Below, piece by piece: positions 18,227-62,564 of a stretch of DNA of 64,000 nucleotides. Location: the sequence record OQ990039; one strand, given 5' to 3'. Both the position numbers and the translations under genes were made by a program. The stretch is from Escherichia phage SUT_E420. The stretch's first letter is position 1. Every line of letters begins with the position of its first letter. The notes under the pieces were generated by a model that did no database searches, was not told the DNA's origin, and saw nothing but the letters and a program-made list of their open reading frames with translations.

Positions 18227-20641
18227 GTGTTCTCAATCCTACAAGGTCATGCAGGATTTCATCGCGATTTAGCCACAGGCAATTGGCGAGAAGTTAAAGC
18301 AGAAGACTATCTTTTTGCTAAAAGATTTTCCTCAAAGCATCCTGAAGGTAAACCAGCTTCAATGCCCTTCAAGTTTGATGTAATTGATGAAGTTGATCCT
18401 CAAACCCTAGTAGAAATGCTTCCTCTTATGAGACGTTTAACGTCTGACCCTCATATCGTTGCGGTACGAGGTCGATGTCTTACACCTAAAAATAATGTGC
18501 GACGTAAGAAGGGCAACTTTAATGTATCTAACCCAAGTCATATAATTGCAATGGACGTGGATGGTATTGTAGATACAGGTGGTTGCAACAAGTTTGATCT
18601 TGTTGGCATGGCTCGACATATTATTAGAATGTTAAATAGTATTAGTGAGGATATGTTTCCTCTTGATGCAGGGTTTATCGCTCATGCATCGTCTTCGGCT
18701 GGGCTNNNNNNNNNNNNNNNNNNNNNNNNNNNNNNNNNNNNNNNNNNNNNNNNNNNNNNNNNNNNNNNNNNNNNNNNNNNNNNNNNNNNNNNNNNNNNNN
18801 NNNNNATGTTAAATAGTATTAGTGAGGATATGTTTCCTCTTGATGCAGGGTTTATCGCTCATGCATCGTCTTCGGCTGGGCTAAAACCAGGTATCCGAAT
18901 GCACTTAATACTAGAATCTAATGTTAAAGTAACTCAGGGTCAAATCAAATTCTTATTTACATCTATCAACGAAAGTAGTAGACAAAAGTATGGCTTTGAT
19001 ATTGCCGACTTAGCTTATTACTCTTCCGTACAGCTCCACTATTTTGCAGATCCGTTATTTACCGATGGTATAGTAGATCCGTTTAAAGCGGAGGGTGCTT
19101 CACGTCTGGTATTTGTTAAGGGTTCTAAAGTAAATTTACCCAATAATCTGGTTGACTATGAAACAACTAGAGGTGAGTTTAAGGAGGAGTTTTACTCTTT
19201 ACTCGATCAAATTAAAGGTAAAAAAGCTGCCTCTGATAAAGTAGAGGAAACTATCAGCGAACTAGAAGAAGCTGAGGATGGAGTGTATCTACGTATCATA
19301 CCTAAACTCTATCACAGAGCCTTAGAGGATGGTGTTGATTTTGCATGGCTAGAAAAAGAAATCCGTCCAGCCTTATCAGAATATATTGCAACTAAAGATA
19401 ACAGTCGCAATATTCAAGATTACTTTAATAACGGTCGTAAACAGGCTCTGAAAGCATTTGTTAATAATTCTAAACGTGATATACCTGATGTTTTAAAGGG
19501 TATTCCACTTAAAAAGCTAGAAACTAATTCTCTAGAAACTGATAACTTCTTGAAATTAAATACTGTACCACCAGAAGGTTATATGACTTTTGTAAAAGCA
19601 AGTCTAGGTACAGGTAAAACTACAGCGGTTGTGCGTTGGTTAGATTCAGGAGTTATTAAAGGTAATTTCTTAGCAATTACCAATACTAGAGCACTGGTAT
19701 CTTCAAATGCCAAGAAATTTAGTGCAGGACAATATGATAAGTCTGTAGATATGCTTAATTTTAAGCGGGGTGCTATTGACCGTATGTCCACAACTATTCA
19801 CTCTTTGCATAAATTCAAGAGTTTTATTGGTCAAATTGATGCAATCTTTATCGATGAATGTGATGCAGTAATGAATGACCTATTATTCGCCCCGGTTGTT
19901 AAACAACGTCGCGAGTGTATTCAGGTTCTTCGGGATATTCTTGCAACTGCAAAAATCATTATATTATCTGATGGGGATATTAGTGCAGAAACAATTGAAG
20001 CATATGGTTCTTTGATTGAGTTTGATAAACCAGTAGCATTTTATAACCATCACCGTAAAATGCTATCAAAAGCTCATGCTTATGAGTTCCCGGATGAATC
20101 CAGTATTTGGGTTGCACTTCAGACTTCTCTAGAGATGGGTGAGAAATCTATCCTAGTATCTGACTGTGGGCCGGATGAACTGAATGAGAAGGGTATGGCA
20201 TTGCGTCGTAATACGGGTGCGTTAGTTAAGGAAATCCACTCAAANNNNNNNNNNNNNNNNNNNNNNNNNNNNNNNNNNNNNNNNNNNNNNNNNNNNNNNN
20301 NNNNNNNNNNNNNNNNNNNNNNNNNNNNNNNNNNNNNNNNNNNNGATATTAAGAAGTGTTCAAATGTCACTATCAAACCATTCATAGAAGCTCTGAAAGG
20401 TAAGAAGAAAGATTTCTTCCTTAAAACAGGTCAGAGTGCTAACCCAAAATATGCCAGAATGTATCTTGGTATGATGGGTATTGGTAAGGATATGAACACT
20501 GAAAATATTGTAGACTGGTACAGAACCTATTGTAAAATCGAGTGTATGCCAATCCCCTATAAGTTTATGACTGATGAGGAGAAACATATGCATGATGAAG
20601 CAATGGCAGAGCTAGGTGCTAGAAATGACAGTGAAGAATAA
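18227..20641 (+). CDS. Putative replication initiator / P-loop helicase-like ATPase, possible N-terminal primase-polymerase-like domain (interrupted by two assembly gaps)
   Basis: Start proposed at GTG 18227 with AGGAG SD. Walker A SLGTGKTT and Walker B IFIDECD. N-terminal IIAMDVDG and GIRMHLIL resemble AEP motifs (tentative). Contains gaps 18706-18805 and 20245-20344. Confidence 0.55.
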   Translation: MFSILQGHAGFHRDLATGNWREVKAEDYLFAKRFSSKHPEGKPASMPFKFDVIDEVDPQTLVEMLPLMRRLTSDPHIVAVRGRCLTPKNNVRRKKGNFNVSNPSHIIAMDVDGIVDTGGCNKFDLVGMARHIIRMLNSISEDMFPLDAGFIAHASSSAGXXXXXXXXXXXXXXXXXXXXXXXXXXXXXXXXXXMLNSISEDMFPLDAGFIAHASSSAGLKPGIRMHLILESNVKVTQGQIKFLFTSINESSRQKYGFDIADLAYYSSVQLHYFADPLFTDGIVDPFKAEGASRLVFVKGSKVNLPNNLVDYETTRGEFKEEFYSLLDQIKGKKAASDKVEETISELEEAEDGVYLRIIPKLYHRALEDGVDFAWLEKEIRPALSEYIATKDNSRNIQDYFNNGRKQALKAFVNNSKRDIPDVLKGIPLKKLETNSLETDNFLKLNTVPPEGYMTFVKASLGTGKTTAVVRWLDSGVIKGNFLAITNTRALVSSNAKKFSAGQYDKSVDMLNFKRGAIDRMSTTIHSLHKFKSFIGQIDAIFIDECDAVMNDLLFAPVVKQRRECIQVLRDILATAKIIILSDGDISAETIEAYGSLIEFDKPVAFYNHHRKMLSKAHAYEFPDESSIWVALQTSLEMGEKSILVSDCGPDELNEKGMALRRNTGALVKEIHSXXXXXXXXXXXXXXXXXXXXXXXXXXXXXXXXXXDIKKCSNVTIKPFIEALKGKKKDFFLKTGQSANPKYARMYLGMMGIGKDMNTENIVDWYRTYCKIECMPIPYKFMTDEEKHMHDEAMAELGARNDSEE
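18706..18805. other. Assembly gap (100 N) flanked by identical 77-bp copies
   Basis: The 77 bp before the N-run (18629-18705) are repeated exactly after it (18806-18882). Confidence 0.95.
20245..20344. other. Assembly gap (100 N) without flanking duplication
   Basis: No repeat of the flanking sequence across the gap; true gap content and length unknown. Confidence 0.95.
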
Positions 20642-20858
20642 AAAATGGGAAACAAGGAAGTTTCCAGTAAAAGAACGTAAAGTTCCTGTTTACGACACTT
20701 CGGAAAAGCTATGTAGGGTGGTACCGCATAGATTAGCTGGCATCCCTAACATATCCGAGTGGTTACTTAAACAACGGAAAACAAACGTGTCTCTTCGTAT
20801 CGGCTTTGAATTAGATAAAGTCTATGCTGAACTTGCTTCTTTACTCAAGGAATCGTAA
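20625..20858 (+). CDS. Hypothetical small basic protein
   Basis: ATG at 20625 within an ORF overlapping the end of the upstream gene. Weak. Confidence 0.3.
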   Translation: MTVKNKKWETRKFPVKERKVPVYDTSEKLCRVVPHRLAGIPNISEWLLKQRKTNVSLRIGFELDKVYAELASLLKES

Positions 20859-20866
20859 AAATTTAT

Positions 20867-20895
20867 TTGCATAGTGCAAAAAATTTCTGTATAAT
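20867..20895 (+). promoter_or_regulatory. T5 PN25-like early promoter
   Basis: AAAAATTTATTTGCAT...TTTCTGTATAATAGATTCATAAATTTGAGAGAGGAGTTTAAAT is nearly identical to the T5 PN25 promoter as I recall it. -35 TTGCAT (20867-20872), 17-nt spacer, -10 TATAAT (20890-20895). Confidence 0.7.
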
Positions 20896-25385: not shown

Positions 25386-26145
25386 ACTGAACTGGAACGT
25401 AGAAGGTGTAACCGAGTCTCTGAAAGCAAAAGCCACTGCTCTGGGTGTTTCTGTAATCTCTCAAGAACAAGTAGCCGCTATCGCCGCTGAACTGGCTGCT
25501 GAAACTGGCAAAGATGTTACCGCTCGCTCTGTTGGCTCTAAACTGCGTAAAGAAGGTTTTGAAGTACAGAAAGCTAACGAAGTACAGAAATCCCCGTGGA
25601 CTCCTGAGCAGGAAGCTGAACTGGTTGATTTCCTGAACGCTCATGCTGGTCAGTATACCTATGCTGAAATCGCTGCTGCTGTAGCTGGTGGTCAGTTCGG
25701 TGCTAAGCAGGTACAGGGTAAGATTCTGAGCCTGGAAATGACCGCTTCTGTTAAACCAACTGAAAAAGCTGCTGCTGTTCGTTCCTTTACTCCGGATGAA
25801 GAAACTGATTTTGTTAATCAGGTTGTTGCTGGTGCTACTATTGAAGCTATCGCTGCTCACTTCGGTCGCAATATTAAGCAGATCCGTGGTAAAGCTCTGA
25901 GTCTGCTTCGTGAAGGTCGTATCGCTGCTATGCCGGTACAGGAAACCTCAAGTGCTAAAACTCGTGAAGATCTGTTAGAAGGTCTGGATCTGGTTAACAT
26001 GACTGTTGCTGAGATCGCTGAGAAAACTGGTAAATCTGAGCGCGGTGTTAAATCTATGCTGTCTCGTCGTGGTCTGGTTGCTAAGGACTATGATGGTGCC
26101 GCTAAGCGTGCTAAACTGGATGCAAAAGCTGCGGCTGCTGAATAA
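25378..26145 (+). CDS. Abundant DNA-binding protein with tandem HTH-like repeats (T5 D5-like, tentative)
   Basis: 255 aa; four repeats of an A-I-A...G-K HTH-like unit; extreme host-optimal codon usage. Confidence 0.5.
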   Translation: MSKLNWNVEGVTESLKAKATALGVSVISQEQVAAIAAELAAETGKDVTARSVGSKLRKEGFEVQKANEVQKSPWTPEQEAELVDFLNAHAGQYTYAEIAAAVAGGQFGAKQVQGKILSLEMTASVKPTEKAAAVRSFTPDEETDFVNQVVAGATIEAIAAHFGRNIKQIRGKALSLLREGRIAAMPVQETSSAKTREDLLEGLDLVNMTVAEIAEKTGKSERGVKSMLSRRGLVAKDYDGAAKRAKLDAKAAAAE

Positions 26146-26162
26146 TCTGGTAAATTAAACCT

Positions 26163-26195
26163 AAGGGGAGGGGGCTATGCTCCTTCCCCTTTTTG
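26163..26195 (+). terminator. Strong intrinsic terminator after the D5-like gene
   Basis: 12-bp stem (with two G-U pairs), CTATG loop, TTTTT tract. Confidence 0.5.
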
Positions 26196-26230
26196 CATTT
26201 AGAAGGCACGAAAGCGTGCAAAGGAGAATG

Positions 26231-27700
26231 ACCTTGTTTAACGTGCAAGCTGTAGTGTTGAAGATGCTTCTAGCTTCCGAACAGAAGCAAATAGCATTGG
26301 AAACATTCTCAAAACTGCATAAAGATCATTTTAATGACGCTTTCTCCTCAATTTACCAAGCCGTCCAGAATTATTATAAAAAATATAACACAATGCCGTC
26401 CATTGACGCACTTATGCTTGAAGCTAATAGGAACGCCCGCCTTTCTCAAGCCCTAGTCGTCTTAGCTAACACTCAAATTCCAGAAGTGAGCATGGAACAG
26501 GCACTTGAAGTCCTAGAGGCCGAGTATACACAGGATTTATTCCTGAAGCTTCTAGAAACAGACGTGCTTCAAGATTTAACAATGCTGGATCAGGGAGAAA
26601 TTCTCAACCGAGTTGCCTCCCTTCACTTAAAATTAGAAGAGAAAGTAACGAATACTGGAAAAGTATTCAACGCAGATAACATGCGTATTTTCCAGAGAGA
26701 AGAAGATACCAAACTGAACTTAATCGCTCTTGGTATTTGTAATGAGTTCGATGCTCAAATTGGTTTAGCTCGCACAGAAACGTTACTGCTTGGTGGTTGG
26801 CGTGGTACTGGTAAATCCATTATCTGTTCAAACATACAGGTTCAGCAATATTTGAATGGAGATATTGCTCCATACTTCTCAATTGAGATGAAAGAACATG
26901 AAGTATTTAGACGTAATCTAGCCATGTTAGCCGGGGTATCAGCACTAGCAATGCGTAATAATACTCTAGAAGGTGCAGCTCTATTGAGATTAGCCAGAAC
27001 TAGAGCTAGAATGTTCAACGGGGGTGAAGAGCTTTTCGATAACTTCGTTAAACAGTATACAATGGCTAAGATGAGTGATTTCTACGATATGGAGAGTAAG
27101 CTAATAGAGGGGTATGAACTACATACTCCTATGATTATCGTTTATGACCCTGAACTGTCCATTACAACAGTTGACGTAGAATTAAATAAATTAGTTGCTA
27201 GATATGGTGATAAAGTTACAGTAGCTTTACTGGACTATATTAACCAAACCCGACTTCCAGATTCTAAAACCATTGATATGTATGACTGGAAGGAACAGAT
27301 GGTTGTTAGCTCGTCTTTCAAATCCATCTGCCAGAAACATAACGTGGCTGGCGTAGCTCCCTACCAGATCGATCAAGATGGTAGAACACGTATGTCAAAG
27401 GGGATTCTTGATTCCGCAGACATGGCTGCTAATCTTAATGCTGCTAAAGCTGATAATGGTCAAGGTGCTATTATGTTTGACTTTGTTAAGACTCGTTCTT
27501 CTGATAGCGTGAAGTTTATGCCTAAAATGAATTGGGAAACTCTGCGAATGGATAATACTACCAACCTAGCAATGGAAGATATATCTCAAATGGAAGCTGA
27601 GTTCGTTATCCCTATTGAGAAGGATAAGCCGGCTCAACCTAAACGTGCTAAGAAAGACAAAACTGAAAATTCAACAGGTGAACAGGCCAGCGATATATGA
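26231..27700 (+). CDS. Replicative helicase-like ATPase (RecA-fold, DnaB-like)
   Basis: Walker A GGWRGTGKS, Walker B-like IIVYDPE. Start uncertain: the track ATG at 26177 lies in the terminator loop, so 26231 (or TTG 26237) is preferred. Confidence 0.6.
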   Translation, partial: TLFNVQAVVLKMLLASEQKQIALETFSKLHKDHFNDAFSSIYQAVQNYYKKYNTMPSIDALMLEANRNARLSQALVVLANTQIPEVSMEQALEVLEAEYTQDLFLKLLETDVLQDLTMLDQGEILNRVASLHLKLEEKVTNTGKVFNADNMRIFQREEDTKLNLIALGICNEFDAQIGLARTETLLLGGWRGTGKSIICSNIQVQQYLNGDIAPYFSIEMKEHEVFRRNLAMLAGVSALAMRNNTLEGAALLRLARTRARMFNGGEELFDNFVKQYTMAKMSDFYDMESKLIEGYELHTPMIIVYDPELSITTVDVELNKLVARYGDKVTVALLDYINQTRLPDSKTIDMYDWKEQMVVSSSFKSICQKHNVAGVAPYQIDQDGRTRMSKGILDSADMAANLNAAKADNGQGAIMFDFVKTRSSDSVKFMPKMNWETLRMDNTTNLAMEDISQMEAEFVIPIEKDKPAQPKRAKKDKTENSTGEQASDI

Positions 27701-28587
27701 GTAGAATAACAGAACTACTTGATCTGAAAGGCATTGAATATAAAGACACAGGTGGGGACATCCTCATCTGTTGTCTCAATCCAGATCATGACGATAAACA
27801 CCCAAGTTTGCGTATTGATCCTGAAACAGGTATTATGCACTGCTTGAGTTGTGGCTTCGGTAAAGGTATACCGAGCATTTACCATTATTTTAATGAGACT
27901 CAGTACCGACAGTCTCCAAGACTATCGCAGGTACGTAAAAAGATTTCAGAGATTAGGAATGGATCTACAAATCTTGCAATTCCTGAATCTGCTTACCTTT
28001 TCGAAGGTGATTTCCGAGGTATAAGTTCTAAGACCTTGAAGAAATACTTTGCTTTCCAACACCAAGCAGACTGGGAAGGCAGAATTGTATTCCCAATCAC
28101 AGATGCTGTTGGACGCAATATCCTATTTTTGGGTCGTTCTATAAACAGTTCTGCCCCTCCTAAATACTTAGTAAAACCAAAACAAGTTTCACCACCGATT
28201 TTCCCTGTACGATATAATACTCCAGTTCTTATTCTAGTTGAAGGTATCTTTGATATGCTGAACCTAGAGGATAATGGTATAGACTATGCTTCTTGCTGCT
28301 TTGGTACACATCAGTTTACTTCAGATAACATTGCAGATAAGTTTAGCCCTTATATTATTGCTGGTGTAAAAGTTGTTGTTATCTTACTAGATAATGATGC
28401 TTCTGGTAATAAAGCTGCACAAGCGTTGGCCAAGCTAATTCGTACAAAAACGCGTTTAACACCTGTAGTGGCTAACTTTCTTCTACCCGAAGGTAAAGAC
28501 CCTGGTGACTTAAATAAAGAAGAAATTGATATGTTAGCAAAACGTATTGAAATTTTAGTTGCTGAATCGCTTAAAGATTTGGTATAA
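27697..28587 (+). CDS. DNA primase (DnaG-like, zinc-binding + TOPRIM)
   Basis: 296 aa; zinc motif CCLNPDHDDKHPS...CLSCGFG and TOPRIM acidic motif ILVEGIFDMLNLEDNG. Confidence 0.8.
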   Translation: MSRITELLDLKGIEYKDTGGDILICCLNPDHDDKHPSLRIDPETGIMHCLSCGFGKGIPSIYHYFNETQYRQSPRLSQVRKKISEIRNGSTNLAIPESAYLFEGDFRGISSKTLKKYFAFQHQADWEGRIVFPITDAVGRNILFLGRSINSSAPPKYLVKPKQVSPPIFPVRYNTPVLILVEGIFDMLNLEDNGIDYASCCFGTHQFTSDNIADKFSPYIIAGVKVVVILLDNDASGNKAAQALAKLIRTKTRLTPVVANFLLPEGKDPGDLNKEEIDMLAKRIEILVAESLKDLV

Positions 28588-28591
28588 TATA

Positions 28592-28636
28592 TTGGTAAGT
28601 TAGAGAAGAAACACTGAAGTTATACTTACTTACCAA
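28592..28636 (+). promoter_or_regulatory. 5'-UTR stem-loop adjacent to the DNA polymerase RBS (candidate translational operator)
   Basis: Perfect 9-bp inverted repeat TTGGTAAGT (28592-28600) / ACTTACCAA (28628-28636) with 27-nt loop, ending 1 nt before the SD GAGGAG. Confidence 0.4.
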
Positions 28637-28649
28637 GAGGAGATTAAAT

Positions 28650-30842
28650 TTGAAAATCGCAGTAGTTGATAAAGCTCTAAATAACACTCGTTACGATAAA
28701 CATTTCCAGCTATACGGCGAGGAAGTTGATGTATTTCATATGTGTAACGAGAAGTTATCTGGTCGTTTGCTTAAAAAGCACATTACTATTGGAACACCAG
28801 AAAATCCATTTGATCCGAATGATTACGATTTTGTTATACTAGTAGGTGCTGAACCTTTCCTGTATTTCGCAGGTAAGAAAGGCATTGGTGACTATACTGG
28901 TAAACGTGTAGAATATAATGGATATGCTAACTGGATTGCAAGTATCAGCCCAGCCCAGTTACACTTTAAGCCTGAAATGAAACCAGTTTTCGATGCAACA
29001 GTAGAGAATATCCACGATATTATCAATGGTCGTGAAAAGATTGCAAAAGCTGGTGATTACCGTCCTATTACTGACCCTGATGAGGCGGAAGAATATATCA
29101 AGATGGTGTATAATATGGTTATCGGACCTGTCGCATTCGACTCCGAAACCTCAGCACTATACTGTCGAGATGGTTATCTGCTTGGTGTTTCTATATCTCA
29201 CCAAGAGTATCAGGGTGTATATATCGATTCTGATTGTCTCACAGAGGTTGCAGTATATTATCTCCAGAAAATTCTGGATAGTGAAAACCACACTATTGTT
29301 TTTCACAACTTGAAGTTTGATATGCACTTTTATAAGTACCATCTGGGACTTACTTTTGATAAAGCACATAAAGAACGCAGGCTCCATGATACAATGTTGC
29401 AGCATTATGTTCTAGATGAGCGTCGTGGTACTCATGGCTTGAAATCTCTAGCAATGAAGTATACCGATATGGGTGACTATGACTTTGAACTAGATAAGTT
29501 CAAAGATGATTACTGCAAAGCACATAAAATCAAGAAAGAAGATTTCACCTATGATTTAATTCCGTTTGATATTATGTGGCCTTACGCTGCAAAAGATACC
29601 GATGCCACCATACGCTTGCACAACTTCTTCTTACCAAAAATTGAGAAGAATGAAAAACTTTGCAGTCTGTATTATGATGTTCTAATGCCTGGTTGTGTAT
29701 TTCTCCAGCGTGTTGAGGATCGTGGTGTACCNNNNNNNNNNNNNNNNNNNNNNNNNNNNNNNNNNNNNNNNNNNNNNNNNNNNNNNNNNNNNNNNNNNNN
29801 NNNNNNNNNNNNNNNNNNNNNNNNNNNNNNNGGGTATCGTGTAATCGCATGGGACTTAACAACTGCGGAAGTTTATTATGCTGCTGTTCTATCTGGGGAT
29901 AGAAATATGCAACAGGTATTTATCAATATGAGAAATGAACCTGATAAATACCCGGACTTCCACTCTAACATCGCACACATGGTATTTAAACTCCAATGCG
30001 AGCCTCGTGATGTTAAAAAGTTATTCCCAGCTCTGCGTCAGGCTGCTAAGGCAATTACCTTCGGTATTTTGTATGGTTCTGGCCCAGCTAAAGTAGCTCA
30101 TTCTGTTAACGAAGCTCTTCTGGAACAGGCTGCTAAGACAGGAGAACCGTTTGTTGAATGTACTGTTGCGGATGCGAAGGACTATATCGAAACTTACTTC
30201 GGTCAGTTCCCACAGCTTAAGCGTTGGATTGATAAGTGCCACGATCAGATTAAGAATCATGGATTTATCTATAGTCACTTTGGTCGTAAGCGTCGTCTGC
30301 ACAATATCCACTCCGAAGACCGTGGTGTTCAGGGTGAAGAAATTCGTTCTGGATTTAACGCAATCATTCAGTCTGCTTCCTCTGATAGCCTCCTTTTAGG
30401 TGCTGTAGATGCAGATAATGAGATCATTTCTCTTGGCCTAGAACAAGAGATGAAGATTGTTATGCTGGTTCATGACTCCGTGGTTGCTATTGTTCGTGAG
30501 GATTTGATCGACCAATACAATGAAATCCTGATTCGTAATATTCAGAAAGACCGTGGTATCAGTATTCCTGGCTGTCCGATTGGTATTGATTCAGATTCTG
30601 AAGCTGGAGGTTCTCGTGACTATTCTTGTGGTAAGATGAAGAAACAGCACCCATCAATCGCTTGTATTGATGATGATGAATATACTCGTTATGTCAAGAG
30701 TGTATTACTTGATGCAGAGTTCGAGTATAAGAAACTAGCTGCAATGGATAAAGAGCATCCAGATCATAGCAAATACAAGGATGATAAGTTTATTGCTGTA
30801 TGTAAAGATTTGGATAACGTAAGAAGGATTCTCGGTGCTTGA
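28650..30842 (+). CDS. DNA polymerase, family A with 3'-5' exonuclease domain (interrupted by an assembly gap)
   Basis: TTG start after AGAGGAG SD. Exo motif FDSETSALY, Pol motif B RQAAKAITFGILYGSG, motif C LVHDSV. Gap 29732-29831 has no flanking duplication. Confidence 0.9.
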   Translation: MKIAVVDKALNNTRYDKHFQLYGEEVDVFHMCNEKLSGRLLKKHITIGTPENPFDPNDYDFVILVGAEPFLYFAGKKGIGDYTGKRVEYNGYANWIASISPAQLHFKPEMKPVFDATVENIHDIINGREKIAKAGDYRPITDPDEAEEYIKMVYNMVIGPVAFDSETSALYCRDGYLLGVSISHQEYQGVYIDSDCLTEVAVYYLQKILDSENHTIVFHNLKFDMHFYKYHLGLTFDKAHKERRLHDTMLQHYVLDERRGTHGLKSLAMKYTDMGDYDFELDKFKDDYCKAHKIKKEDFTYDLIPFDIMWPYAAKDTDATIRLHNFFLPKIEKNEKLCSLYYDVLMPGCVFLQRVEDRGVXXXXXXXXXXXXXXXXXXXXXXXXXXXXXXXXXXGYRVIAWDLTTAEVYYAAVLSGDRNMQQVFINMRNEPDKYPDFHSNIAHMVFKLQCEPRDVKKLFPALRQAAKAITFGILYGSGPAKVAHSVNEALLEQAAKTGEPFVECTVADAKDYIETYFGQFPQLKRWIDKCHDQIKNHGFIYSHFGRKRRLHNIHSEDRGVQGEEIRSGFNAIIQSASSDSLLLGAVDADNEIISLGLEQEMKIVMLVHDSVVAIVREDLIDQYNEILIRNIQKDRGISIPGCPIGIDSDSEAGGSRDYSCGKMKKQHPSIACIDDDEYTRYVKSVLLDAEFEYKKLAAMDKEHPDHSKYKDDKFIAVCKDLDNVRRILGA
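29732..29831. other. Assembly gap (100 N) without flanking duplication, inside the polymerase gene
   Basis: No repeated flank; likely conceals real polymerase sequence. Confidence 0.95.
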
Positions 30843-31332
30843 TTTCAAATTGCCCGTCTATACGTTACGGGCGTTTGTATCAATTGAGCAAGAAGGTGAT
30901 TATTCCGTAATTACAACAAGATATAATAAATATGTGCTAGATAACAGGAAGTTGCCTGGCACGTTTTCTCAACGTAGGCTCATTCTATTTGAGAAACGGA
31001 AAGAATTACCGTACAAGCTCTATCCTATTAGAGGTAGAATATCAATGTTGTCCCAATTAGTTGGGTCAAAGCGTAGCCAATTTATAGATTCTGATGGAAA
31101 TCTTATTAATTGGAAGAAAACTACGTTCTATGATGTTGTTACCTCTAAAGTTTTGAATTCAGCTAGAATTTATAACGGAAAATACCAATGCTATGTAGCT
31201 AAAGTTCCATACCCATTTGTATTATCCTATGTTCCAGCTTATATAAGCTATATTCTGGTAAATAATAGCCCTGTTATTTATCAAGTCCATCAAGAGGAGC
31301 CTGAAATTCCTAGACTTAGAATAAAATTATGA
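30835..31332 (+). CDS. Hypothetical protein
   Basis: 165-aa ORF with GTG start overlapping the polymerase stop. Confidence 0.4.
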   Translation: MLDFKLPVYTLRAFVSIEQEGDYSVITTRYNKYVLDNRKLPGTFSQRRLILFEKRKELPYKLYPIRGRISMLSQLVGSKRSQFIDSDGNLINWKKTTFYDVVTSKVLNSARIYNGKYQCYVAKVPYPFVLSYVPAYISYILVNNSPVIYQVHQEEPEIPRLRIKL

Positions 31333-32681
31333 AGGTTGTTATATCTAATAAAGCCTATTTCAAGCCCGATGATGAACTTTGGGATTATTGTAGTAAGCAA
31401 ACCACTTATCACATAGAGACAATGACTAGTAAATACCCTATTATGTATAAGAATAGTGGTGTTGTTGCTAAAGAGATTAAGTGGATTCCTATCACGCGTC
31501 TGGATTTATTAGATGCTAAAGGAGTAAAATACGAATTAGTAGATAAACGTACATTAGCTCCGGTAGATATACCAAAACCTAAGTTCAAGCTGCGTGAAGA
31601 AGACCAGCTCCCAATATATGAAGAGTGCGATGATACCTGTATTATTAATGGTAAGCCTGGGTTTGGTAAAACTATCCTAGCCCTTGCACTTGCGTATAAA
31701 TTTGGCCAGAAAACTTTGGTAATCTGTACGAATACATCCATTCGTGAAATGTGGGCAGCAGAAGTTCGTAAATGGTTTGGGTTTGAACCGGGCATTATAG
31801 GTTCTGGGAAATACAATATTGATCCACCAATTGTAGTCAGTAATATTCAAACAGTGAATAAACATGCGAATAATCTTTCTAAAGTATTCGGTACTGTTAT
31901 AGTTGATGAAGTTCACCATTGTGTGGCTACAACTTTCACCAACTTCCTAGAAATATCATGTGCTCGCTATAAGATTGGACTATCTGGAACATTAAAACGG
32001 AAAGATGGTCTACAAGTTATGTTCAAAGATTTCTTTGGATATAAGATCTTTAGCCCACCGGTTAATAATACTGTTGCACCTACAATCCATAGGTACTCCG
32101 TGCCTGTTGAGTTATCAGGAAACCAAAACGTACCATGGGCATTACGTGCTAATGATGTGTATAACCATCCTGAATATCGAGAGACTATTATAAACTTAGC
32201 ACACTTATACGTGAATATGGGGCATAAAGTACTCATTGTAAGTGACAGAACAGAGTTAATCCAAACAGTACTAGAAGCTCTCGCACAGCGTGGTGTTACA
32301 ACATATGAAATTATAGGGGCAACCCACTTGGATGACCGATTAAAAATTCAGGAAAATATAGCAAAAGGTGGGCCTTGTGTACTTGCAGCAGCTCAAAGTA
32401 TCTTCTCTGAAGGTATTTCCCTTAATGAGCTATCTTGTTTAATAATGGGGAGTCTCATTAATAATGAATCTCTCATTGAACAGCTTGCAGGACGTGTTCA
32501 ACGTATTGTCGATGGTAAACTCGACCCTATTGTTGTAGATCTAATTATGAAAGGTGGCACTGGACTAAGACAGGCTTCTGGACGTATGGCAGTATATCGT
32601 AACAACGGGTGGAAAACTATTACCATGACTCCTGAGAAAGCAGTTCAATTAGCTAAAATTGCATTTGGCAACAGCTCATAA
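31329..32681 (+). CDS. SF2 DNA helicase (DEAH-type)
   Basis: 450 aa; Walker A NGKPGFGKT and Walker B VIVDEVHH, plus a C-terminal helicase domain. Confidence 0.75.
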   Translation: MKVVISNKAYFKPDDELWDYCSKQTTYHIETMTSKYPIMYKNSGVVAKEIKWIPITRLDLLDAKGVKYELVDKRTLAPVDIPKPKFKLREEDQLPIYEECDDTCIINGKPGFGKTILALALAYKFGQKTLVICTNTSIREMWAAEVRKWFGFEPGIIGSGKYNIDPPIVVSNIQTVNKHANNLSKVFGTVIVDEVHHCVATTFTNFLEISCARYKIGLSGTLKRKDGLQVMFKDFFGYKIFSPPVNNTVAPTIHRYSVPVELSGNQNVPWALRANDVYNHPEYRETIINLAHLYVNMGHKVLIVSDRTELIQTVLEALAQRGVTTYEIIGATHLDDRLKIQENIAKGGPCVLAAAQSIFSEGISLNELSCLIMGSLINNESLIEQLAGRVQRIVDGKLDPIVVDLIMKGGTGLRQASGRMAVYRNNGWKTITMTPEKAVQLAKIAFGNSS

Positions 32682-33178: not shown

Positions 33179-33952
33179 ATGGCTAAGTCTTGGGGCGAAA
33201 CTACTGGCGGTTCTAACGATAAAATCGAATTCCTGAAGTTCAACAACGGTATCACTCGTGTTCGTATCGTTTCTGGTGTTCTTCCACGTTATGTCTATTG
33301 GCTGACTAATAAAGAGGGTAACGTAGCTCCTTTCGAATGTCTCCGTTTTAACCGTGACAAAGAGAGCTTTGTTCGTGGTAAAGCTGATCCGGTTCATGAG
33401 ATGGGCTTCTTCGAGAAAGAGCTGGATAAAGATGGTAATCGTGTTCCGCTGAAACCGAAGAAAAACTATATCGCTTTTGTTATCGACCGTTCTGATAACA
33501 AACTGAAAGTAATGGAAGTCAAGGCTACTATTCTGAAAGGCATCCAGTCTATCATGAAGCAGCTGAGCCTGGCAACTCCGTTTGATATTGATATTTCTAT
33601 CGAGAAAAAAGGTAAAGGTTTCGATACTGAGTATGATGTACAGCAGATTGCTGCTATGCAGTTCCAGATTAAGCTGCAAGATCCTAACAGTGCAGAATCT
33701 AAGCAATATGCTGCAGATGTAGATCTGATCGGTGAAGCTATGTGTGATGAAGATGGCGACATCATTAAGTTCGAAAAAGTTCCTTCTCTGGAACAAACCT
33801 ATCCGGTTCCTACCTATGAAGAGCAGAAAGAAGCAATTCTAGCCTTCATGGAAGGTCGTGAGAATAAAGATGATGATGCCAAATCTGGTAATAGCAATGC
33901 AGGCTCCCAGAAAGGTATTGACACAGAAGCTGCAAGCGATCTGGATGACTAA
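33179..33952 (+). CDS. Putative ssDNA-binding protein with acidic C-terminal tail
   Basis: 257 aa; host-optimal codons; acidic C-terminus (DDDAKSG...ASDLDD) reminiscent of SSB tails. Assignment is inference. Confidence 0.45.
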   Translation: MAKSWGETTGGSNDKIEFLKFNNGITRVRIVSGVLPRYVYWLTNKEGNVAPFECLRFNRDKESFVRGKADPVHEMGFFEKELDKDGNRVPLKPKKNYIAFVIDRSDNKLKVMEVKATILKGIQSIMKQLSLATPFDIDISIEKKGKGFDTEYDVQQIAAMQFQIKLQDPNSAESKQYAADVDLIGEAMCDEDGDIIKFEKVPSLEQTYPVPTYEEQKEAILAFMEGRENKDDDAKSGNSNAGSQKGIDTEAASDLDD

Positions 33953-33959
33953 TAAATAG

Positions 33960-33975
33960 AGGGGCTTCGGCCCCT
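33960..33975 (+). terminator. GC hairpin terminator (AGGGGC-TTCG-GCCCCT)
   Basis: Duplicated at 34139-34154 by the assembly artifact. Confidence 0.45.
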
Positions 33976-33977
33976 TT

Positions 33978-34077
33978 NNNNNNNNNNNNNNNNNNNNNNN
34001 NNNNNNNNNNNNNNNNNNNNNNNNNNNNNNNNNNNNNNNNNNNNNNNNNNNNNNNNNNNNNNNNNNNNNNNNNNNNN
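33978..34077. other. Assembly gap (100 N) flanked by identical 77-bp copies
   Basis: 77-bp flank (33901-33977) repeated exactly at 34078-34154. Confidence 0.95.
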
Positions 34078-34165
34078 AGGCTCCCAGAAAGGTATTGACA
34101 CAGAAGCTGCAAGCGATCTGGATGACTAATAAATAGAGGGGCTTCGGCCCCTTTCTTTTTAACCA

Positions 34166-35320
34166 ATGAGAATATTATTTAGTGCTGATCATCATATCAA
34201 ACTAGGACAAGATAAAGTTCCAAAGGAATGGCAGAAGCGTCGCTTCCTGATGCTAGGAGAACGGTTAAATGATATATTCCATAATCATAACTGTGATCTT
34301 CATATTGCTGGTGGTGATATACTTGATGTTGCCGACCCGTCGTCAGAAGAAATAGAACTGCTTGAACAGTTCATGTCAAGACTTGACCATCCAGGCAAAA
34401 TCTTTACTGGAAATCATGAAATGTTAACGAAAACCATTTCATGTCTATATCATTATGCAGGAGTTATTAATAAAGTAACGAGTGGTAAGTGGGAAGTAAT
34501 TACCAAACCATATCGTTCCCCTGAATTTGATATTGTTCCATATGACGAAATCCATAAATCTAAGTGGAAACCATCTGAATCAAAACTATGTTTCACGCAT
34601 GTTCGTGGTGAAATCCCTCCACATGTAAAACCAGANNNNNNNNNNNNNNNNNNNNNNNNNNNNNNNNNNNNNNNNNNNNNNNNNNNNNNNNNNNNNNNNN
34701 NNNNNNNNNNNNNNNNNNNNNNNNNNNNNNNNNNNTCTAAGTGGAAACCATCTGAATCAAAACTATGTTTCACGCATGTTCGTGGTGAAATCCCTCCACA
34801 TGTAAAACCAGAAATTGATCTAACTAAGTACAACTGTTATGATACTGTAATTGCTGGCGATTTACATTCTTATACTAATAGCCAGACTATCGGATCTACT
34901 AGACTCCTCTACCCAGGGTCTCCATTAACTACATCGTTCCATAGAGAACGCACAAAAGGTACAAATGGTTGCTTTATCGTTGATACCGACACATTAAAAG
35001 TAGAATGGATTGAACTCGGTGATTTACCACAACTGATTCGTAAAACAATCGGAGCTGGTGAAGAGATGGAACCTAGTGATTATGATCGTGTAGTCTATGA
35101 AGTTACTGGTGACGTTGTTCAATTAAAGTCTATCAAAGACTCTGATTTATTAGATAAGAAGATTAACCATCGAGTTACTAAAGACGCTAAGTTAAATCTT
35201 GTTGATCTTGATATGTTAGGCGAACTTGAACTTTACTTCCGTGAAGTTGAGAAGCTATCTCAAGGCGACATTGATAGAATCTTGGCTAGAGCTGCGAAAT
35301 ATGTCAAAGATTACAATTAA
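34166..35320 (+). CDS. sbcD: SbcD/Mre11-like nuclease (calcineurin-like phosphoesterase)
   Basis: N-terminal MRILFSADHHI metallophosphatase motif I. Contains artifact gap 34636-34735 with duplicated flank; true protein about 59 aa shorter. Confidence 0.85.
   Translation: MRILFSADHHIKLGQDKVPKEWQKRRFLMLGERLNDIFHNHNCDLHIAGGDILDVADPSSEEIELLEQFMSRLDHPGKIFTGNHEMLTKTISCLYHYAGVINKVTSGKWEVITKPYRSPEFDIVPYDEIHKSKWKPSESKLCFTHVRGEIPPHVKPXXXXXXXXXXXXXXXXXXXXXXXXXXXXXXXXXXSKWKPSESKLCFTHVRGEIPPHVKPEIDLTKYNCYDTVIAGDLHSYTNSQTIGSTRLLYPGSPLTTSFHRERTKGTNGCFIVDTDTLKVEWIELGDLPQLIRKTIGAGEEMEPSDYDRVVYEVTGDVVQLKSIKDSDLLDKKINHRVTKDAKLNLVDLDMLGELELYFREVEKLSQGDIDRILARAAKYVKDYN
34636..34735. other. Assembly gap (100 N) flanked by identical 77-bp copies
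   Basis: Exact 77-bp duplication either side. Confidence 0.95.
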
Positions 35321-35372
35321 GACACTAAAATTTAGTAACGTTATGTCTTACGGTAAGGACATCGTAATTCAT

Positions 35373-35472
35373 NNNNNNNNNNNNNNNNNNNNNNNNNNNN
35401 NNNNNNNNNNNNNNNNNNNNNNNNNNNNNNNNNNNNNNNNNNNNNNNNNNNNNNNNNNNNNNNNNNNNNNNN
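35373..35472. other. Assembly gap (100 N) flanked by identical 77-bp copies
   Basis: Exact 77-bp duplication either side; duplicates the sbcD stop / sbcC start junction. Confidence 0.95.
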
Positions 35473-35477
35473 GAAAT

Positions 35478-57297: not shown

Positions 57298-57809
57298 TAT
57301 ACTCTCCTGTATACTTCAATAATAGTACGAATATGCTCTGGAATACCAGACTTAGTGCTATTGAAGGTTACTGTTTCACCACCAATTGTTTTAGCTTGGC
57401 GATAATCTTGTTTATGCCAATGATCTACTAGCATACACGCTGCTAACTTAAGATCTTCAGGCACTGGGTTAAATCCACCTTGTGTATACGCTACGTCCAT
57501 ATAACCTTCTGGAGGATTAAATTTGAGAAGGATAATACCGTCAGAGTATAGTTTATACTGCTCTGGGTCAATCTCATTATCATTAATCGTCACTTTAGTT
57601 ACGGAGGTAGCAGATGGTGAACTCAGAAAATATTTCCTACGTGTAGGTTTTGTATTGATTAACTGGTCTACCGCATCAGCATCATCCATGCCTAGAAGGC
57701 TCGTAATCAGCGCATTGGCAGCAGTAATCATCATTTCTACACCGGATTCTAGTTCAGGTCGCTTTAAGCTACCATATAATCTATAATCTTCGGCTGTAAT
57801 GATTTGCAT
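57297..57809 (-). CDS. Head-tail connector/adaptor candidate
   Basis: 170-aa ORF directly downstream of the capsid gene terminator. Confidence 0.4.
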   Translation of the reverse strand: MQIITAEDYRLYGSLKRPELESGVEMMITAANALITSLLGMDDADAVDQLINTKPTRRKYFLSSPSATSVTKVTINDNEIDPEQYKLYSDGIILLKFNPPEGYMDVAYTQGGFNPVPEDLKLAACMLVDHWHKQDYRQAKTIGGETVTFNSTKSGIPEHIRTIIEVYRRV

Positions 57810-57818
57810 TTATTTTTC

Positions 57819-57848
57819 CCCAATAAAAAAGGAGAGCCGAAGCTCTCC
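57819..57848 (-). terminator. Intrinsic terminator after the major capsid gene
   Basis: Perfect 9-bp stem AAGGAGAGC / GCTCTCCTT, CGAA loop, TTTTTTATT on the minus strand. Confidence 0.6.
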
Positions 57849-57869
57849 TTATCGGCTGAAAAGCCTGTA

Positions 57870-59246
57870 TTAAGATGCAGCGTAAGCACCAGATACAACG
57901 CCGTTATTAAAGTAACGTTGCAGGTTAACACGCTGAGTAACGTAGTACGCATCACGCTGTTTACCAGCTTGGCGCTCACGTTCAACAGTAACAGCACGCT
58001 GACGCGGCATTACGAAGTTATCTTTATAAACAATAACTGCGAACTCTGCAGAGTTAGCTTTAGCCGGGAAGAACTCAGAAACTACAACCGGCAGACCGTA
58101 AATACGACCAACCTGACCTTGCAGTTTAACAGCATCATTACCAACTTGGGCAACATCCTGCCATTCTTCATCTTCCAGCAGATCGTAATAAGCATCCATA
58201 GATACAATCAGTACCAGTTTGCTCAGTTTCAGACCATGACGGCCCAGTTTACGGCGCAGTTTAGAGATAGTTTTAGCAGTTACCAGAACAGAACCATCAG
58301 CTTTAGCTTCAGTAATAACTTTAGCACTATCGCCTTCAGCCAGTTTCAGCAGACCCTTAGGCTTACCAGTACCGTCACCAGTCATGAAAGCTTCTTCGAT
58401 AGAAACAGCGTGTGCTTCAATCAGACGCTTACGCAGCAGCGGTAGCAGGGAGAAGATTGCATCTTCTTCAGTTTCATCAGTAATGAAGGACTTAGCAGCC
58501 AGTTTATAGGTTTTGAACTGAATTTCAGTCAGAGCACCTTTAACTTCGTCACCAGTAGTAGCATCAGTACCATATGCGCTAGCATCTACCCAAGTAGCTT
58601 TACCAGCATCTGGTTCAACCAGCATAGTAAGAATTTTGCTGGACATTGGCAGTTCTTCAAACAGAGCACCAACTACTAGTTCTTTCTGCAGGTCACGAAT
58701 AATACGCTGGGAGAAAATAGTTTCGTAGCTTTCACTAGAAACTTCTACTGAAGAGGACTGGTTTACAGTTTTCAGGTGTCTCTGGCCATGTTCGGTATCA
58801 AATACACCTTTTTCCATCACGTAAGACAGAAGAACCAGTTTTTCAACTTCATCTTCAAAGTTTTCCTGAGTACCGTACAGTGCTTTAGCTACGCTATCAC
58901 CAACGAAGGAACGACCTTCACGAGCTGCTAGCAGAGATTTGATTTCGTCCTGAAGACCAACAATAGTTTCCTGCTGTTTTTCTACAGTCTGTGCAAACAG
59001 TTCTGCGCTCTTCTTAGATTTCTCATCCAGGGATTTAACCAGTTCCAGAGCTTCTTCTAGCTTCTGACGATCTTCGCCAACTGCTTTAGAAACCAGGTCA
59101 TTCATACGAGCCAGTTCTTTTTCTTCCTGCTCTTTACGCATACGTTCAGCTTCAGCAGCTTTCTGAGCAGCGGTCAGACCTTCCAGAGATTTAGCCAGAT
59201 CACCCAGACCAAGTTCTTCTTTCAGCTTATTAATATCAATAGTCAT
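57870..59246 (-). CDS. Major capsid protein precursor (HK97-fold) with N-terminal scaffolding-like delta domain
   Basis: 458 aa; coiled-coil N-terminal region; host-optimal codons; follows the prohead protease gene. Confidence 0.8.
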   Translation of the reverse strand: MTIDINKLKEELGLGDLAKSLEGLTAAQKAAEAERMRKEQEEKELARMNDLVSKAVGEDRQKLEEALELVKSLDEKSKKSAELFAQTVEKQQETIVGLQDEIKSLLAAREGRSFVGDSVAKALYGTQENFEDEVEKLVLLSYVMEKGVFDTEHGQRHLKTVNQSSSVEVSSESYETIFSQRIIRDLQKELVVGALFEELPMSSKILTMLVEPDAGKATWVDASAYGTDATTGDEVKGALTEIQFKTYKLAAKSFITDETEEDAIFSLLPLLRKRLIEAHAVSIEEAFMTGDGTGKPKGLLKLAEGDSAKVITEAKADGSVLVTAKTISKLRRKLGRHGLKLSKLVLIVSMDAYYDLLEDEEWQDVAQVGNDAVKLQGQVGRIYGLPVVVSEFFPAKANSAEFAVIVYKDNFVMPRQRAVTVERERQAGKQRDAYYVTQRVNLQRYFNNGVVSGAYAAS

Positions 59247-59896: not shown

Positions 59897-59899
59897 TTA

Positions 59900-60382: not shown

Positions 60383-61950
60383 TCTTTATCTCCCTCGGTG
60401 GAACCTTGAGGTCTGCCACCTTCTTGACCAGATACACCTGTTACAGAACCAGCAACGTTAGCAGGAATACGAATCTTATCCATCTGCTCATCATCTAAAG
60501 GTTCAAGGTTCAGCTCTAAACGAGCTTCGTTACCAGTCATAATACCATTATTAACCAATGAGGTTAAATGTTTAGCCTCAGCTTCTTTATCTGGTGTTAA
60601 TGCAGCTACTTCCTTAGTATTAGGAGTAATCTTATAACCAAAAAAGAAAGTAAGAGAACTAGTCAGTTTGTTCAGCATAGGAATGATAGTCATATAATAG
60701 AACAGTTCGATATTTGGTCGAATGTTCGCATTATTACCACCATCAAGCAGTACTTGCGGAACACCAAAGGCTAGACAGATAGATTTATTAAATCCTTCAA
60801 TGTCTTCCTTGAAGTCTAGGTCTTTAAAAGAGGATATTTGGGAGTACGGTTTAGCTTTCATACCACCATCTAGAATCAGGACAGAGGACTGACCAGTACT
60901 AGGATTATAATCTAGTTGTAATTCTTCTTGTTTACGCTCACGCAATTTCTTGTTCAGGATTTCATCCGTCTCAAGAATAAGACCAATCACNNNNNNNNNN
61001 NNNNNNNNNNNNNNNNNNNNNNNNNNNNNNNNNNNNNNNNNNNNNNNNNNNNNNNNNNNNNNNNNNNNNNNNNNNNNNNNNNNNNNNNNNAGTTGTAATT
61101 CTTCTTGTTTACGCTCACGCAATTTCTTGTTCAGGATTTCATCCGTCTCAAGAATAAGACCAATCACAGTTCCATTATCGAGGAATTTCTCTTTAAAGTT
61201 AAGCATCTTAGAACGCTTCTCAAGAGAGTCAATAACAGTAGCAACACGAGATTGTCCAGAAATTTGAGAATTTGTGCCACACACGTAACTGTTATCCTTT
61301 ATAAAGATAATCTCATCTACGCGATAGTCTATCTGGTTATTAAATATAAATTTTTTGATAAACTTATTGGCATCTGCCTCTACTTGCATTAATGCAGCAG
61401 GGACATGGTAAAGTGCTGTGCCATCCCAATAGATGTATGCACAACCTTCAAAAAGTAGGTCAGTGACTACAAGTCTACGGAATGTGCTTATATNNNNNNN
61501 NNNNNNNNNNNNNNNNNNNNNNNNNNNNNNNNNNNNNNNNNNNNNNNNNNNNNNNNNNNNNNNNNNNNNNNNNNNNNNNNNNNNNNNNNNNNNTGTGCCA
61601 TCCCAATAGATGTATGCACAACCTTCAAAAAGTAGGTCAGTGACTACAAGTCTACGGAATGTGCTTATATCCATGAATGGATTAGGTCGTACATTTAAGA
61701 GAGTGTCTAGAGTCTTTGCCTTGATGCCATTGGCATACGTGACAATATTATATTTATCTCCGACAGTATAAGAACACTCCGCCGCACTATCTATAACCAT
61801 ATTAGCAGTTCTATTGAGAATCTCAATTTTACTGTAGGCTTGTCCAGTGGTAAAAGGCTTACGGTTAGTGCGATGACTAACTGGTTCCATGTCTCTTATA
61901 ATACGTTGACCCGGATTTAGCTTTTCAGTAATCCAGCTTTTAAAACCCAT
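60379..61950 (-). CDS. Portal protein
   Basis: Lies between the terminase-proximal HNH gene and the decoration/protease genes. Contains gaps 60991-61090 and 61494-61593; true length about 405 aa. Confidence 0.65.
   Translation of the reverse strand: MGFKSWITEKLNPGQRIIRDMEPVSHRTNRKPFTTGQAYSKIEILNRTANMVIDSAAECSYTVGDKYNIVTYANGIKAKTLDTLLNVRPNPFMDISTFRRLVVTDLLFEGCAYIYWDGTXXXXXXXXXXXXXXXXXXXXXXXXXXXXXXXXXXISTFRRLVVTDLLFEGCAYIYWDGTALYHVPAALMQVEADANKFIKKFIFNNQIDYRVDEIIFIKDNSYVCGTNSQISGQSRVATVIDSLEKRSKMLNFKEKFLDNGTVIGLILETDEILNKKLRERKQEELQXXXXXXXXXXXXXXXXXXXXXXXXXXXXXXXXXXVIGLILETDEILNKKLRERKQEELQLDYNPSTGQSSVLILDGGMKAKPYSQISSFKDLDFKEDIEGFNKSICLAFGVPQVLLDGGNNANIRPNIELFYYMTIIPMLNKLTSSLTFFFGYKITPNTKEVAALTPDKEAEAKHLTSLVNNGIMTGNEARLELNLEPLDDEQMDKIRIPANVAGSVTGVSGQEGGRPQGSTEGDKE
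60991..61090. other. Assembly gap (100 N) flanked by identical 77-bp copies
   Basis: Exact 77-bp duplication either side. Confidence 0.95.
61494..61593. other. Assembly gap (100 N) flanked by identical 77-bp copies
   Basis: Exact 77-bp duplication either side. Confidence 0.95.
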
Positions 61951-62564
61951 TATAAGAACCTTGCGAATCCTGATTTTGTTTCAGTCTTGACTTGTGTCTT
62001 TTCTTGAGGATTCTGTAATTTGTCTTTCTGCTTTTGAACCCACACTTTTTGCTTATTAGCAGAAAATAAAGGAGGTTCTTTTGTGTAAACCTTATGTAAT
62101 AATTGGTGATGGTGNNNNNNNNNNNNNNNNNNNNNNNNNNNNNNNNNNNNNNNNNNNNNNNNNNNNNNNNNNNNNNNNNNNNNNNNNNNNNNNNNNNNNN
62201 NNNNNNNNNNNNNNACCCACACTTTTTGCTTATTAGCAGAAAATAAAGGAGGTTCTTTTGTGTAAACCTTATGTAATAATTGGTGATGGTGTACACAAAG
62301 GGTAACAGTGTCTTCTACTAGCTCATGCCTATATCGATCATAGAATGCCGTCCTATTTGAAAGGACTATTTCTTCGTCAGTGAAATCCAATTGGAGTTCT
62401 TTAGCAAATTTTTTAACTAGTAGAGACACCGTATGGTAATGATGAAGCTCTAATTCTTCAGCACAACCGCAGATAGCACATTGAGAGTCTTTTTTATATT
62501 GACTTTTTATTCCGTCTCTCATAAGGGATATAGCATCGCGTTTATATTTTATATTGCTTGCCAT
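61950..62564 (-). CDS. HNH endonuclease adjacent to terminase
   Basis: Start at ATG 62564 with GAGGAG SD; Cys/His motif CAICGCAEELELHHYH...LCVHHHQLLH. Contains artifact gap 62115-62214. Confidence 0.65.
   Translation of the reverse strand: MASNIKYKRDAISLMRDGIKSQYKKDSQCAICGCAEELELHHYHTVSLLVKKFAKELQLDFTDEEIVLSNRTAFYDRYRHELVEDTVTLCVHHHQLLHKVYTKEPPLFSANKQKVWXXXXXXXXXXXXXXXXXXXXXXXXXXXXXXXXXXHHHQLLHKVYTKEPPLFSANKQKVWVQKQKDKLQNPQEKTQVKTETKSGFARFL
62115..62214. other. Assembly gap (100 N) flanked by identical 77-bp copies
   Basis: Exact 77-bp duplication either side. Confidence 0.95.

Follow-up and report, generated by a model that had tools for sequence, protein, structure and literature searches.

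Do the runs of N scattered through this stretch of DNA, most of them framed by identical sequences, mark real features of the phage genome, or were they made when the record was put together? The window (the whole stretch of 64,000 nt analysed here) contains 14 N-runs, each of exactly 100 N. At 12 of the 14, the 77 bases on the 5′ side are the same as the 77 bases on the 3′ side, and no match is seen at other overlap lengths; a first-pass annotation of the sequence had reported fourteen 100-N gaps, twelve with exact 77-bp duplicated flanks, and these counts match the window exactly. At the remaining two N-runs (20245–20344 and 29732–29831) a search that included shorter hidden overlaps found no flank overlap of at least 4 bases. 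In order along the window, the features are:

Junction 1: 77-mer 18629–18705, N 18706–18805, 77-mer 18806–18882; plus strand; inside the helicase/replication-origin-binding gene.
True gap with unduplicated flanks: N 20245–20344; in the helicase/origin-binding gene; 100 N replace 652 bp.
True gap with unduplicated flanks: N 29732–29831; in the DNA polymerase gene; 100 N replace 475 bp.
Junction 2: 33901–34154, N 33978–34077; 3′ end of D11 with its stop codon and terminator hairpin, upstream of sbcD.
Junction 3: 34559–34812, N 34636–34735; plus strand; inside the SbcD-like D12.
Junction 4: 35296–35549, N 35373–35472; takes in both the SbcD stop and the start of the SbcC-like D13, which overlaps it.
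Junction 5: 35928–36181, N 36005–36104; plus strand; inside the SbcC-like D13.
Junction 6: 36798–37051, N 36875–36974; plus strand; inside the SbcC-like D13; also duplicated in SUT_E520.
Junction 7: 37794–38047, N 37871–37970; plus strand; inside D14, a RusA-like resolvase.
Junction 8: 38366–38619, N 38443–38542; plus strand; inside the flap endonuclease (FEN) D15.
Junction 9: 45186–45439, N 45263–45362; minus strand; inside pb4, the central straight fibre; also duplicated in SUT_E520.
Junction 10: 60914–61167, N 60991–61090; minus strand; inside the portal gene; also duplicated in SUT_E520.
Junction 11: 61417–61670, N 61494–61593; minus strand; inside the portal gene; also duplicated in SUT_E520.
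Junction 12: 62038–62291, N 62115–62214; minus strand; inside the nicking (HNH-type) endonuclease gene.

Chance is excluded as the source of the duplicated flanks: the probability that 77 bp agree exactly at a given offset is about 4^-77. Across the whole window, the only exact direct repeats of at least 25 bp are the 12 junction pairs (77 bp, offset 177) and one genuine 21/63-bp tandem repeat at 42160–42512.

The sequence without gaps is available from a finished relative. Each of the 15 segments into which the N-runs divide the window aligns at 100.000% identity, with no alignment gaps, to Escherichia phage SUT_E1520 (OQ885479.1), a Tequintavirus with a gap-free genome near-identical to T5_ev212 and EC148, and every non-N base of the window is the same in that genome. 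Unlike the window, SUT_E1520 is a single contig with zero Ns and holds every junction 77-mer in a single copy. Placed on this genome, adjacent segments of the window overlap at each of the 12 duplicated junctions, always by exactly 77 bp. The repaired window, with duplicates collapsed and holes filled, is an exact 62,803-bp substring of the reverse complement of SUT_E1520. The flanks of the gap at 20245–20344 map to SUT_E1520 positions 84612 and 83959, so that 652 bp are absent, and an absence of equal size is found on T5_ev212 (61786–62437). The flanks of the gap at 29732–29831 map to SUT_E1520 positions 74573 and 74097, which leaves 475 bp absent. The spacer is thus arbitrary in length, being always 100 N where the true distances are −77 bp (12 times), +652 bp and +475 bp. 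T5_ev212 is likewise collinear across all 12 duplicated junctions, with one copy of each 77-mer and the same 77-bp overlaps. The collapsed D11–FEN region matches 452 T5-like records, 435 of which hold at least 80% of the region in one place, and it aligns as a single piece in 58 of 60 among the matches listed.

The fourteen N-runs are a problem of record quality, not biology. The window is almost certainly part of a draft of a T5-like coliphage (Tequintavirus) in which contigs were joined by hand, with k = 77 overlaps left unmerged and 100-N spacers set between them. The isolating laboratory worked with 150-bp MiniSeq reads, assembled them with SPAdes 3.15.3 and, where a phage came out as several contigs, joined these manually in SnapGene (PMC10668671), and identical 77-bp contig ends of phages have been described as a SPAdes product (PMC9409062). 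The first-pass reading of the N-runs as contigs overlapping by one 77-mer and joined with a fixed spacer is borne out by the single copies in SUT_E1520 and T5_ev212 and by this pipeline. The duplicated flank equals the assembler's final k (77) at all 12 junctions, and SUT_E1520 itself ends in an overlap of 77 bp, its first 77-mer being identical to its last. As in the familiar SPAdes end overlap, the redundancy in the window corresponds to the final k, which is 77 for 150-bp reads; it differs from the usual case in that the redundancy is kept untrimmed at twelve places, with 100 N set between the two copies at each. The spacer also resembles the convention for a ‘gap of unknown length’, in which a fixed 100 N is written whatever the real distance. 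Presumably it stems here from that convention or from the default of a scaffolding tool, the laboratory's paper being silent on its origin.

In the course of events that we propose, SPAdes run on 150-bp reads would have ended at k = 77 and delivered the genome as many contigs, any two neighbours in the de Bruijn graph having in common the 77-mer of the vertex that joins them. These contigs would then have been ordered against a relative and concatenated with 100 N, the shared 77-mer being left untrimmed. Twelve joins lack nothing and have each gained 177 spurious bases (100 N plus the redundant 77-mer). At the other two, one small contig each would have been omitted, and the 100 N stand for 652 and 475 real bases.

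A second record from the same laboratory and pipeline carries the same pattern. SUT_E520 (OQ990040.1, deposited as a ‘partial genome’) has an underlying sequence identical to that of the window and contains 18 runs of 100 N, 12 of them with 77-bp duplicated flanks. The two records have four junctions and one gap edge in common, the latter being the right edge of the gap at 29732–29831. SUT_E520 differs from the window in that most of its junctions lie elsewhere and its real holes are larger (4262 and 3794 bp). It contains no exact match to the window, which most probably belongs to the sibling record SUT_E420 (OQ990039) of that study.

The effect on predicted proteins follows from the size of the inserts. 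Each duplicated junction adds 100 + 77 = 177 bp, or 59 codons, and translation across the gaps confirms the kept frame, in agreement with the arithmetic of the first-pass annotation. That annotation had further held that the proteins of seven genes are overestimated in length, and on read-through each of the seven does grow by a multiple of 59 aa: SbcD (D12) to 384 aa against a true 325, SbcC (D13) to 789 or 730 aa against 612, D14 to 219 aa against 160, FEN (D15) to 350 aa against 291, pb4 to 744 aa against 685, the portal protein to 523 aa against 405 (+118) and the HNH nickase to 204 aa against 145. SbcC has two lengths (+177 or +118) depending on the copy of the start that is used, junction 4 having created two candidate starts at 35301 and 35478. 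SbcD carries only one in-frame insertion and SbcC two or three, because the junction at 35373 covers the stop of the former and the start of the latter. The junction at 33978 alters no protein, and D11 keeps its true length of 257 aa. When the duplicated 77-mers are collapsed and the Ns dropped, as had been proposed as a check, the genes regain their annotated SUT_E1520 lengths with the frame kept. Gene callers that mask N, however, shorten genes instead of lengthening them: in the Prokka annotation of SUT_E520, from the same pipeline, those next to gaps of this kind are cut short or absent, not over-long. The earlier list of affected genes had also omitted the 929-aa helicase/origin-binding gene, which is hit by the junction at 18706. 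In the record this protein falls from 929 to 804 aa, a net loss of 125, and the DNA polymerase likewise loses 125 aa (855 to 730). The frames of both survive only because 652, 475 and 100 all equal 1 modulo 3.

Why did the contigs break where they did? The likeliest reason, which we infer from the positions of the breaks, is that the lysates contained a second T5-like genotype, a close relative, which made the graph branch. Of 11 junction 77-mers in the D11–FEN cluster, six lie immediately next to a site found to vary in one or more of five T5-like relatives (PS3-1, ECOP18, AKFV33, MM-1 and SP15), against a null expectation of 0.107 per junction (binomial P = 4e-4) and 0–4 in shifted controls. 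Positions next to junction 77-mers include 38759, 39397, 39774 and 40545 on the reverse complement of SUT_E1520. The breaks also cluster in the same gene modules in two independent assemblies, those of the window and SUT_E520. We give roughly even chances to the more specific proposal that the break positions record a second T5-like genotype in supposedly pure stocks, mosaic in the helicase, polymerase, SbcCD–FEN, pb4 and portal–nickase modules. Such a genotype would give rise to extra edges at the 12 vertices. Any contaminant or variant must be specific to the library, since SUT_E1520, the same phage, gave one contig.

We sought the proposed second genotype among T5_ev212, the five T5-like relatives and SUT_E1620, and none fits. 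For a genotype like T5_ev212, only 2 of the 12 window junctions (at 22257 and 64646 on the reverse complement of SUT_E1520) coincide with the edge of a shared 77-mer run, and the sequence around both is locally divergent, which makes them weak support. For PS3-1, ECOP18, AKFV33, MM-1 and SP15, the required pattern of exact shared blocks is absent in all. Two causes of breakage of another kind were also considered. Genomic repeats are set aside because the junction 77-mers are unique in SUT_E1520, where none of their substrings of more than 16 bp recurs elsewhere. The single-strand nick sites of T5 are an unlikely cause, as overlaps of exactly k bp imply that the graph was connected and branching, not that coverage broke off.

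Error k-mers at very high coverage are a known cause of fragmentation in phage assemblies. The same joining artefact could accordingly have arisen from breaks at sequencing-error or chimeric k-mers rather than from a second genotype, which we regard as possible but on the whole doubtful. It would suit the 589x coverage given for one sibling phage (PMC10668671), the clean assembly of the same genome as SUT_E1520, the partly different junction positions in the two fragmented assemblies, and the failure of every database genome tested to reproduce the required variant pattern. Random errors would, however, be expected to scatter across the whole 108 kb, whereas it is the same few modules that are broken in the two assemblies, with base-exact agreement at five boundaries. 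The polymorphic sites that the junctions abut far more often than chance allows (P = 4e-4) are, moreover, natural and mostly of synonymous type.

Branching through cross-contamination with SUT_E1620 (Epseptimavirus), the fourth phage of the study, sequenced alongside in the same laboratory, is very improbable. The junction 77-mers at 61494 and 62115 do occur exactly in SUT_E1620. A de Bruijn graph of two genomes requires breaks at the boundaries of shared runs, however, and of the 24 junction 77-mers from the window and SUT_E520 together, not one begins or ends a 77-mer run shared with SUT_E1620. Many such shared runs at 25884–32223 of the SUT_E1520 reverse complement are, in addition, unbroken in both assemblies.

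There is next to no likelihood that the 77-bp repeats are true direct repeats of the phage, such as target-site duplications or scars of recombination, on either side of real inserts that went unsequenced: the bare fact that they are exact and border gaps, and the homing endonuclease genes that T5-like phages carry as free-standing units (the HNH_3 ORF at 8388–8870 of the window is one), stand against the single insert-free copy at all 12 sites in a 100%-identical finished genome, one copy per site in T5_ev212, the collinearity of the collapsed D11–FEN region in hundreds of T5-like records, the uniform 77 bp of the assembler's k and uniform 100 N of the spacers, the interruption of essential genes (SbcCD, FEN, pb4 and portal) that would result at ten junctions, and duplications of this type that lie elsewhere in SUT_E520, whose underlying sequence is identical. 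A repeat pair with an insert, looked for in the independent assemblies, was not found at 8 of the 12 window sites, which are single-copy in both SUT_E1520 and SUT_E520.

The importance of the joining artefact itself is one of data hygiene only. Used as it stands, the record yields seven proteins with runs of X and duplicated peptides of 25–26 residues, and leaves the helicase and the polymerase with internal stretches deleted. It also offers twelve false 77-bp direct repeats that risk being mistaken for target-site duplications or recombination sites. The genome length is wrong as well: the 12 duplicated junctions together contribute 2,124 spurious bases, and the two true gaps cost 927 real ones, net of spacers. 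With an identical finished genome to hand (OQ885479.1), an exact repair is trivial. At least one further public record (OQ990040.1) shares the defect, and OQ885479.1 has it in a milder form, as the 77-bp end redundancy. If the breaks do stem from a second genotype, the study's three ‘identical’ biocontrol phages would include two mixed populations, and the map of breaks would be a low-resolution picture of the recombination modules of T5-like phages.

A direct scan of the window bears out the gap count and coordinates of the first-pass annotation. There are 14 runs of N, every one exactly 100 N, and at 12 of them the left-flanking 77 bases are identical to the right-flanking 77 bases, with no other overlap length fitting. 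We refer to these 12 sites as junctions, named by the start of the N-run. The flanks of the other two runs, the true gaps at 20245–20344 (helicase gene) and 29732–29831 (DNA polymerase gene), were searched for an overlap of at least 4 bases and none was found. An exhaustive search of the window for exact repeats of at least 25 bp returned only the twelve 77-bp pairs, a genuine 21/63-bp tandem repeat at 42160–42512 inside the tail-fibre gene, and no inverted repeats. Chance is not a candidate for the origin of the pairs, as all are exactly 77 bp at an offset of 177. The tail-fibre repeats (period 21/42/63 bp, up to ~9 copies, at 42160–42615 of the L-shaped tail-fibre gene) are also present in the T5_ev212 genome and are the sole real exact repeats of this size in the window.

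The window belongs to a T5-like coliphage (Tequintavirus), most probably SUT_E420, one of four isolates described together: SUT_E420 (OQ990039), SUT_E520 (OQ990040), SUT_E1520 (OQ885479) and SUT_E1620 (OQ939939) (PMC10668671). Its best-known close relative, T5_ev212 (LR597659.1, free of Ns), matches most of it at 99.9%, and two records match at 100%: SUT_E1520 (OQ885479.1; "complete genome", 108,306 bp) and SUT_E520 (OQ990040.1; "partial genome"). We aligned each of the 15 segments between N-runs singly to T5_ev212 and to SUT_E1520. On T5_ev212, neighbouring segments overlap by exactly 77 bp at all 12 junctions, and the true gaps correspond to 652 bp (helicase; ref 61786–62437) and 475 bp (DNA polymerase; ref 71825–72299). 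SUT_E1520 gives the same overlaps and the same holes, and each of the 15 segments matches it at 100.000%, with zero mismatches and zero indels. Genuine 77-bp repeats flanking unsequenced inserts are thus refuted as far as sequence comparison goes. Every sequence-level defining feature of a contig-join artefact was tested and found, and the earlier reading, that contigs overlapping by one k-mer (k = 77) were joined unmerged, is upheld with minor corrections. The junctions are a textbook case, in which a k-mer overlap was left unmerged and a spacer of customary length was put in; they are not a biological feature.

Merging the duplicates and removing the Ns had been proposed as a check, and the record passes it fully. 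With one copy of each duplicated 77-mer and its Ns deleted and the two holes filled from SUT_E1520, the repaired window, now 62,803 bp, matches the SUT_E1520 reverse complement exactly from end to end (positions 3629–66431).

According to the paper on these isolates (PMC10668671), 150-bp reads were assembled with SPAdes 3.15.3, and phages that came out as several contigs were joined by hand in SnapGene. SPAdes stops at k = 77 for 150-bp reads. The first and last 77-mers of SUT_E1520 are identical (OQ885479.1 positions 1–77 and 108230–108306), and one SUT_E520 contig passes straight over the end-to-start join; in another phage paper, identical 77-bp contig ends were ascribed to the SPAdes algorithm (PMC9409062). 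Together these observations corroborate SPAdes at k = 77. The terminal 77-mer of SUT_E1520 is an untrimmed SPAdes circular-path overlap, and OQ885479.1 therefore exceeds the true length by 77 bp, with arbitrary ends in place of the physical T5-type termini. SUT_E520 has the same defect: of its 18 N-runs, each exactly 100 N long, 12 lie between duplicated 77-bp flanks. Its gaps are placed differently from those in the window, so the window is not SUT_E520; its real holes range from 82 to 4262 bp, and all its segments are 100% identical to SUT_E1520. SUT_E1520, SUT_E520 and the window's phage, which is probably the third of the set, are described as distinct isolates from more than one host (E. 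coli K12, O157:H7). Judged by their records, all three seem to share one genome, base for base, in every stretch that is sequenced.

Identity to T5_ev212 is mosaic: 99.9% for the most part, ~96.6% over 8922–20244, and 79–94% across the nickase/terminase end (62215–64000). The T5_ev212 gene "ACLAME 141" (ref ~103087–103824) is missing from the window, as is ref 57797–57987 near window position 16269. Between nrdA and nrdB, a 160-residue ORF with a Pfam HNH_3 domain (8388–8870, minus strand; E = 1.6e-8) lies at a locus of 533 bp in the window versus 35 bp in T5_ev212, and resembles an indel of a free-standing homing endonuclease.

Protein lengths in the window, true and on read-through (translation straight across the Ns)
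SbcD-like D12: true 325 aa; read-through 384 aa
SbcC-like D13: true 612 aa; read-through 789 aa (start in left copy) or 730 aa (start in right copy)
D14 resolvase: true 160 aa; read-through 219 aa
Flap endonuclease D15: true 291 aa; read-through 350 aa
pb4: true 685 aa; read-through 744 aa
Portal: true 405 aa; read-through 523 aa
Nicking (HNH-type) endonuclease: true 145 aa; read-through 204 aa
D11: true 257 aa; read-through 257 aa (unaffected)
Helicase/origin-binding protein: true 929 aa; read-through 804 aa
DNA polymerase: true 855 aa; read-through 730 aa

The expectation that proteins at junctions would be overlong holds for SbcD, SbcC, D14, the flap endonuclease, pb4, portal and the HNH nickase, but the helicase and polymerase are shortened and D11 is unchanged. 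D11 escapes because junction 33978 duplicates only its tail, stop codon and terminator. The helicase gene, absent from the first-pass list though junction 18706 falls inside it, is also struck by the 652-bp true gap, hence its net change of +59 −184 aa; the 475-bp gap costs the polymerase 125 aa. The reading frame survives the two true gaps for one reason only: 652, 475 and 100 each leave a remainder of 1 on division by 3. A gene caller that masks Ns in practice cuts such genes short and does not lengthen them. The deposited SUT_E520 annotation gives just short fragments of polymerase, SbcD, SbcC, D14, flap endonuclease and portal, and has no call for pb4 or D11.

An exact k-bp overlap means that two contigs adjoin as edges at a branching graph vertex, and does not point to a coverage hole. 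In the window and SUT_E520, the two fragmented assemblies, the breaks are concentrated in a common set of modules (helicase, polymerase, D11 to flap endonuclease, pb4, and portal–nickase), and five boundaries coincide to the base (34210, 40468, 48325, 63876 and 64202 in reverse-complement SUT_E1520 coordinates). We compared five T5-like genomes (PS3-1, ECOP18, AKFV33, MM-1 and SP15) over the D11-to-flap-endonuclease cluster, where 6 of 11 distinct junction 77-mers adjoin a site polymorphic in at least one of them (null rate 0.107 per junction; binomial P = 4.4e-4); when these positions were moved by 1–7 bases, 0–4 hits remained. Such adjacency is a prediction of a two-genotype de Bruijn graph, and our preferred explanation is accordingly another T5-like genotype, closely related to the first, which was probably present in the lysates or libraries behind both fragmented assemblies. 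The main alternative, error-driven branching at high coverage, is less likely, as random errors do not predict junctions beside polymorphic sites. As for the identity of a second genotype, a T5_ev212-like variant accounts for at most two junctions, and none of the five compared genomes fits over the cluster. Cross-contamination by SUT_E1620 fails: none of the junction 77-mers opens or closes a stretch of 77-mers shared with that phage, and many such stretches occur where there is no break. Repeats in the genome are ruled out as a cause, since every junction 77-mer is unique in the finished genome and holds no recurring internal substring longer than 16 bp.

The useful product is an exact repair recipe for the window, together with the flagging of two further public records, OQ990040.1 for the same defect and OQ885479.1 for its end redundancy.
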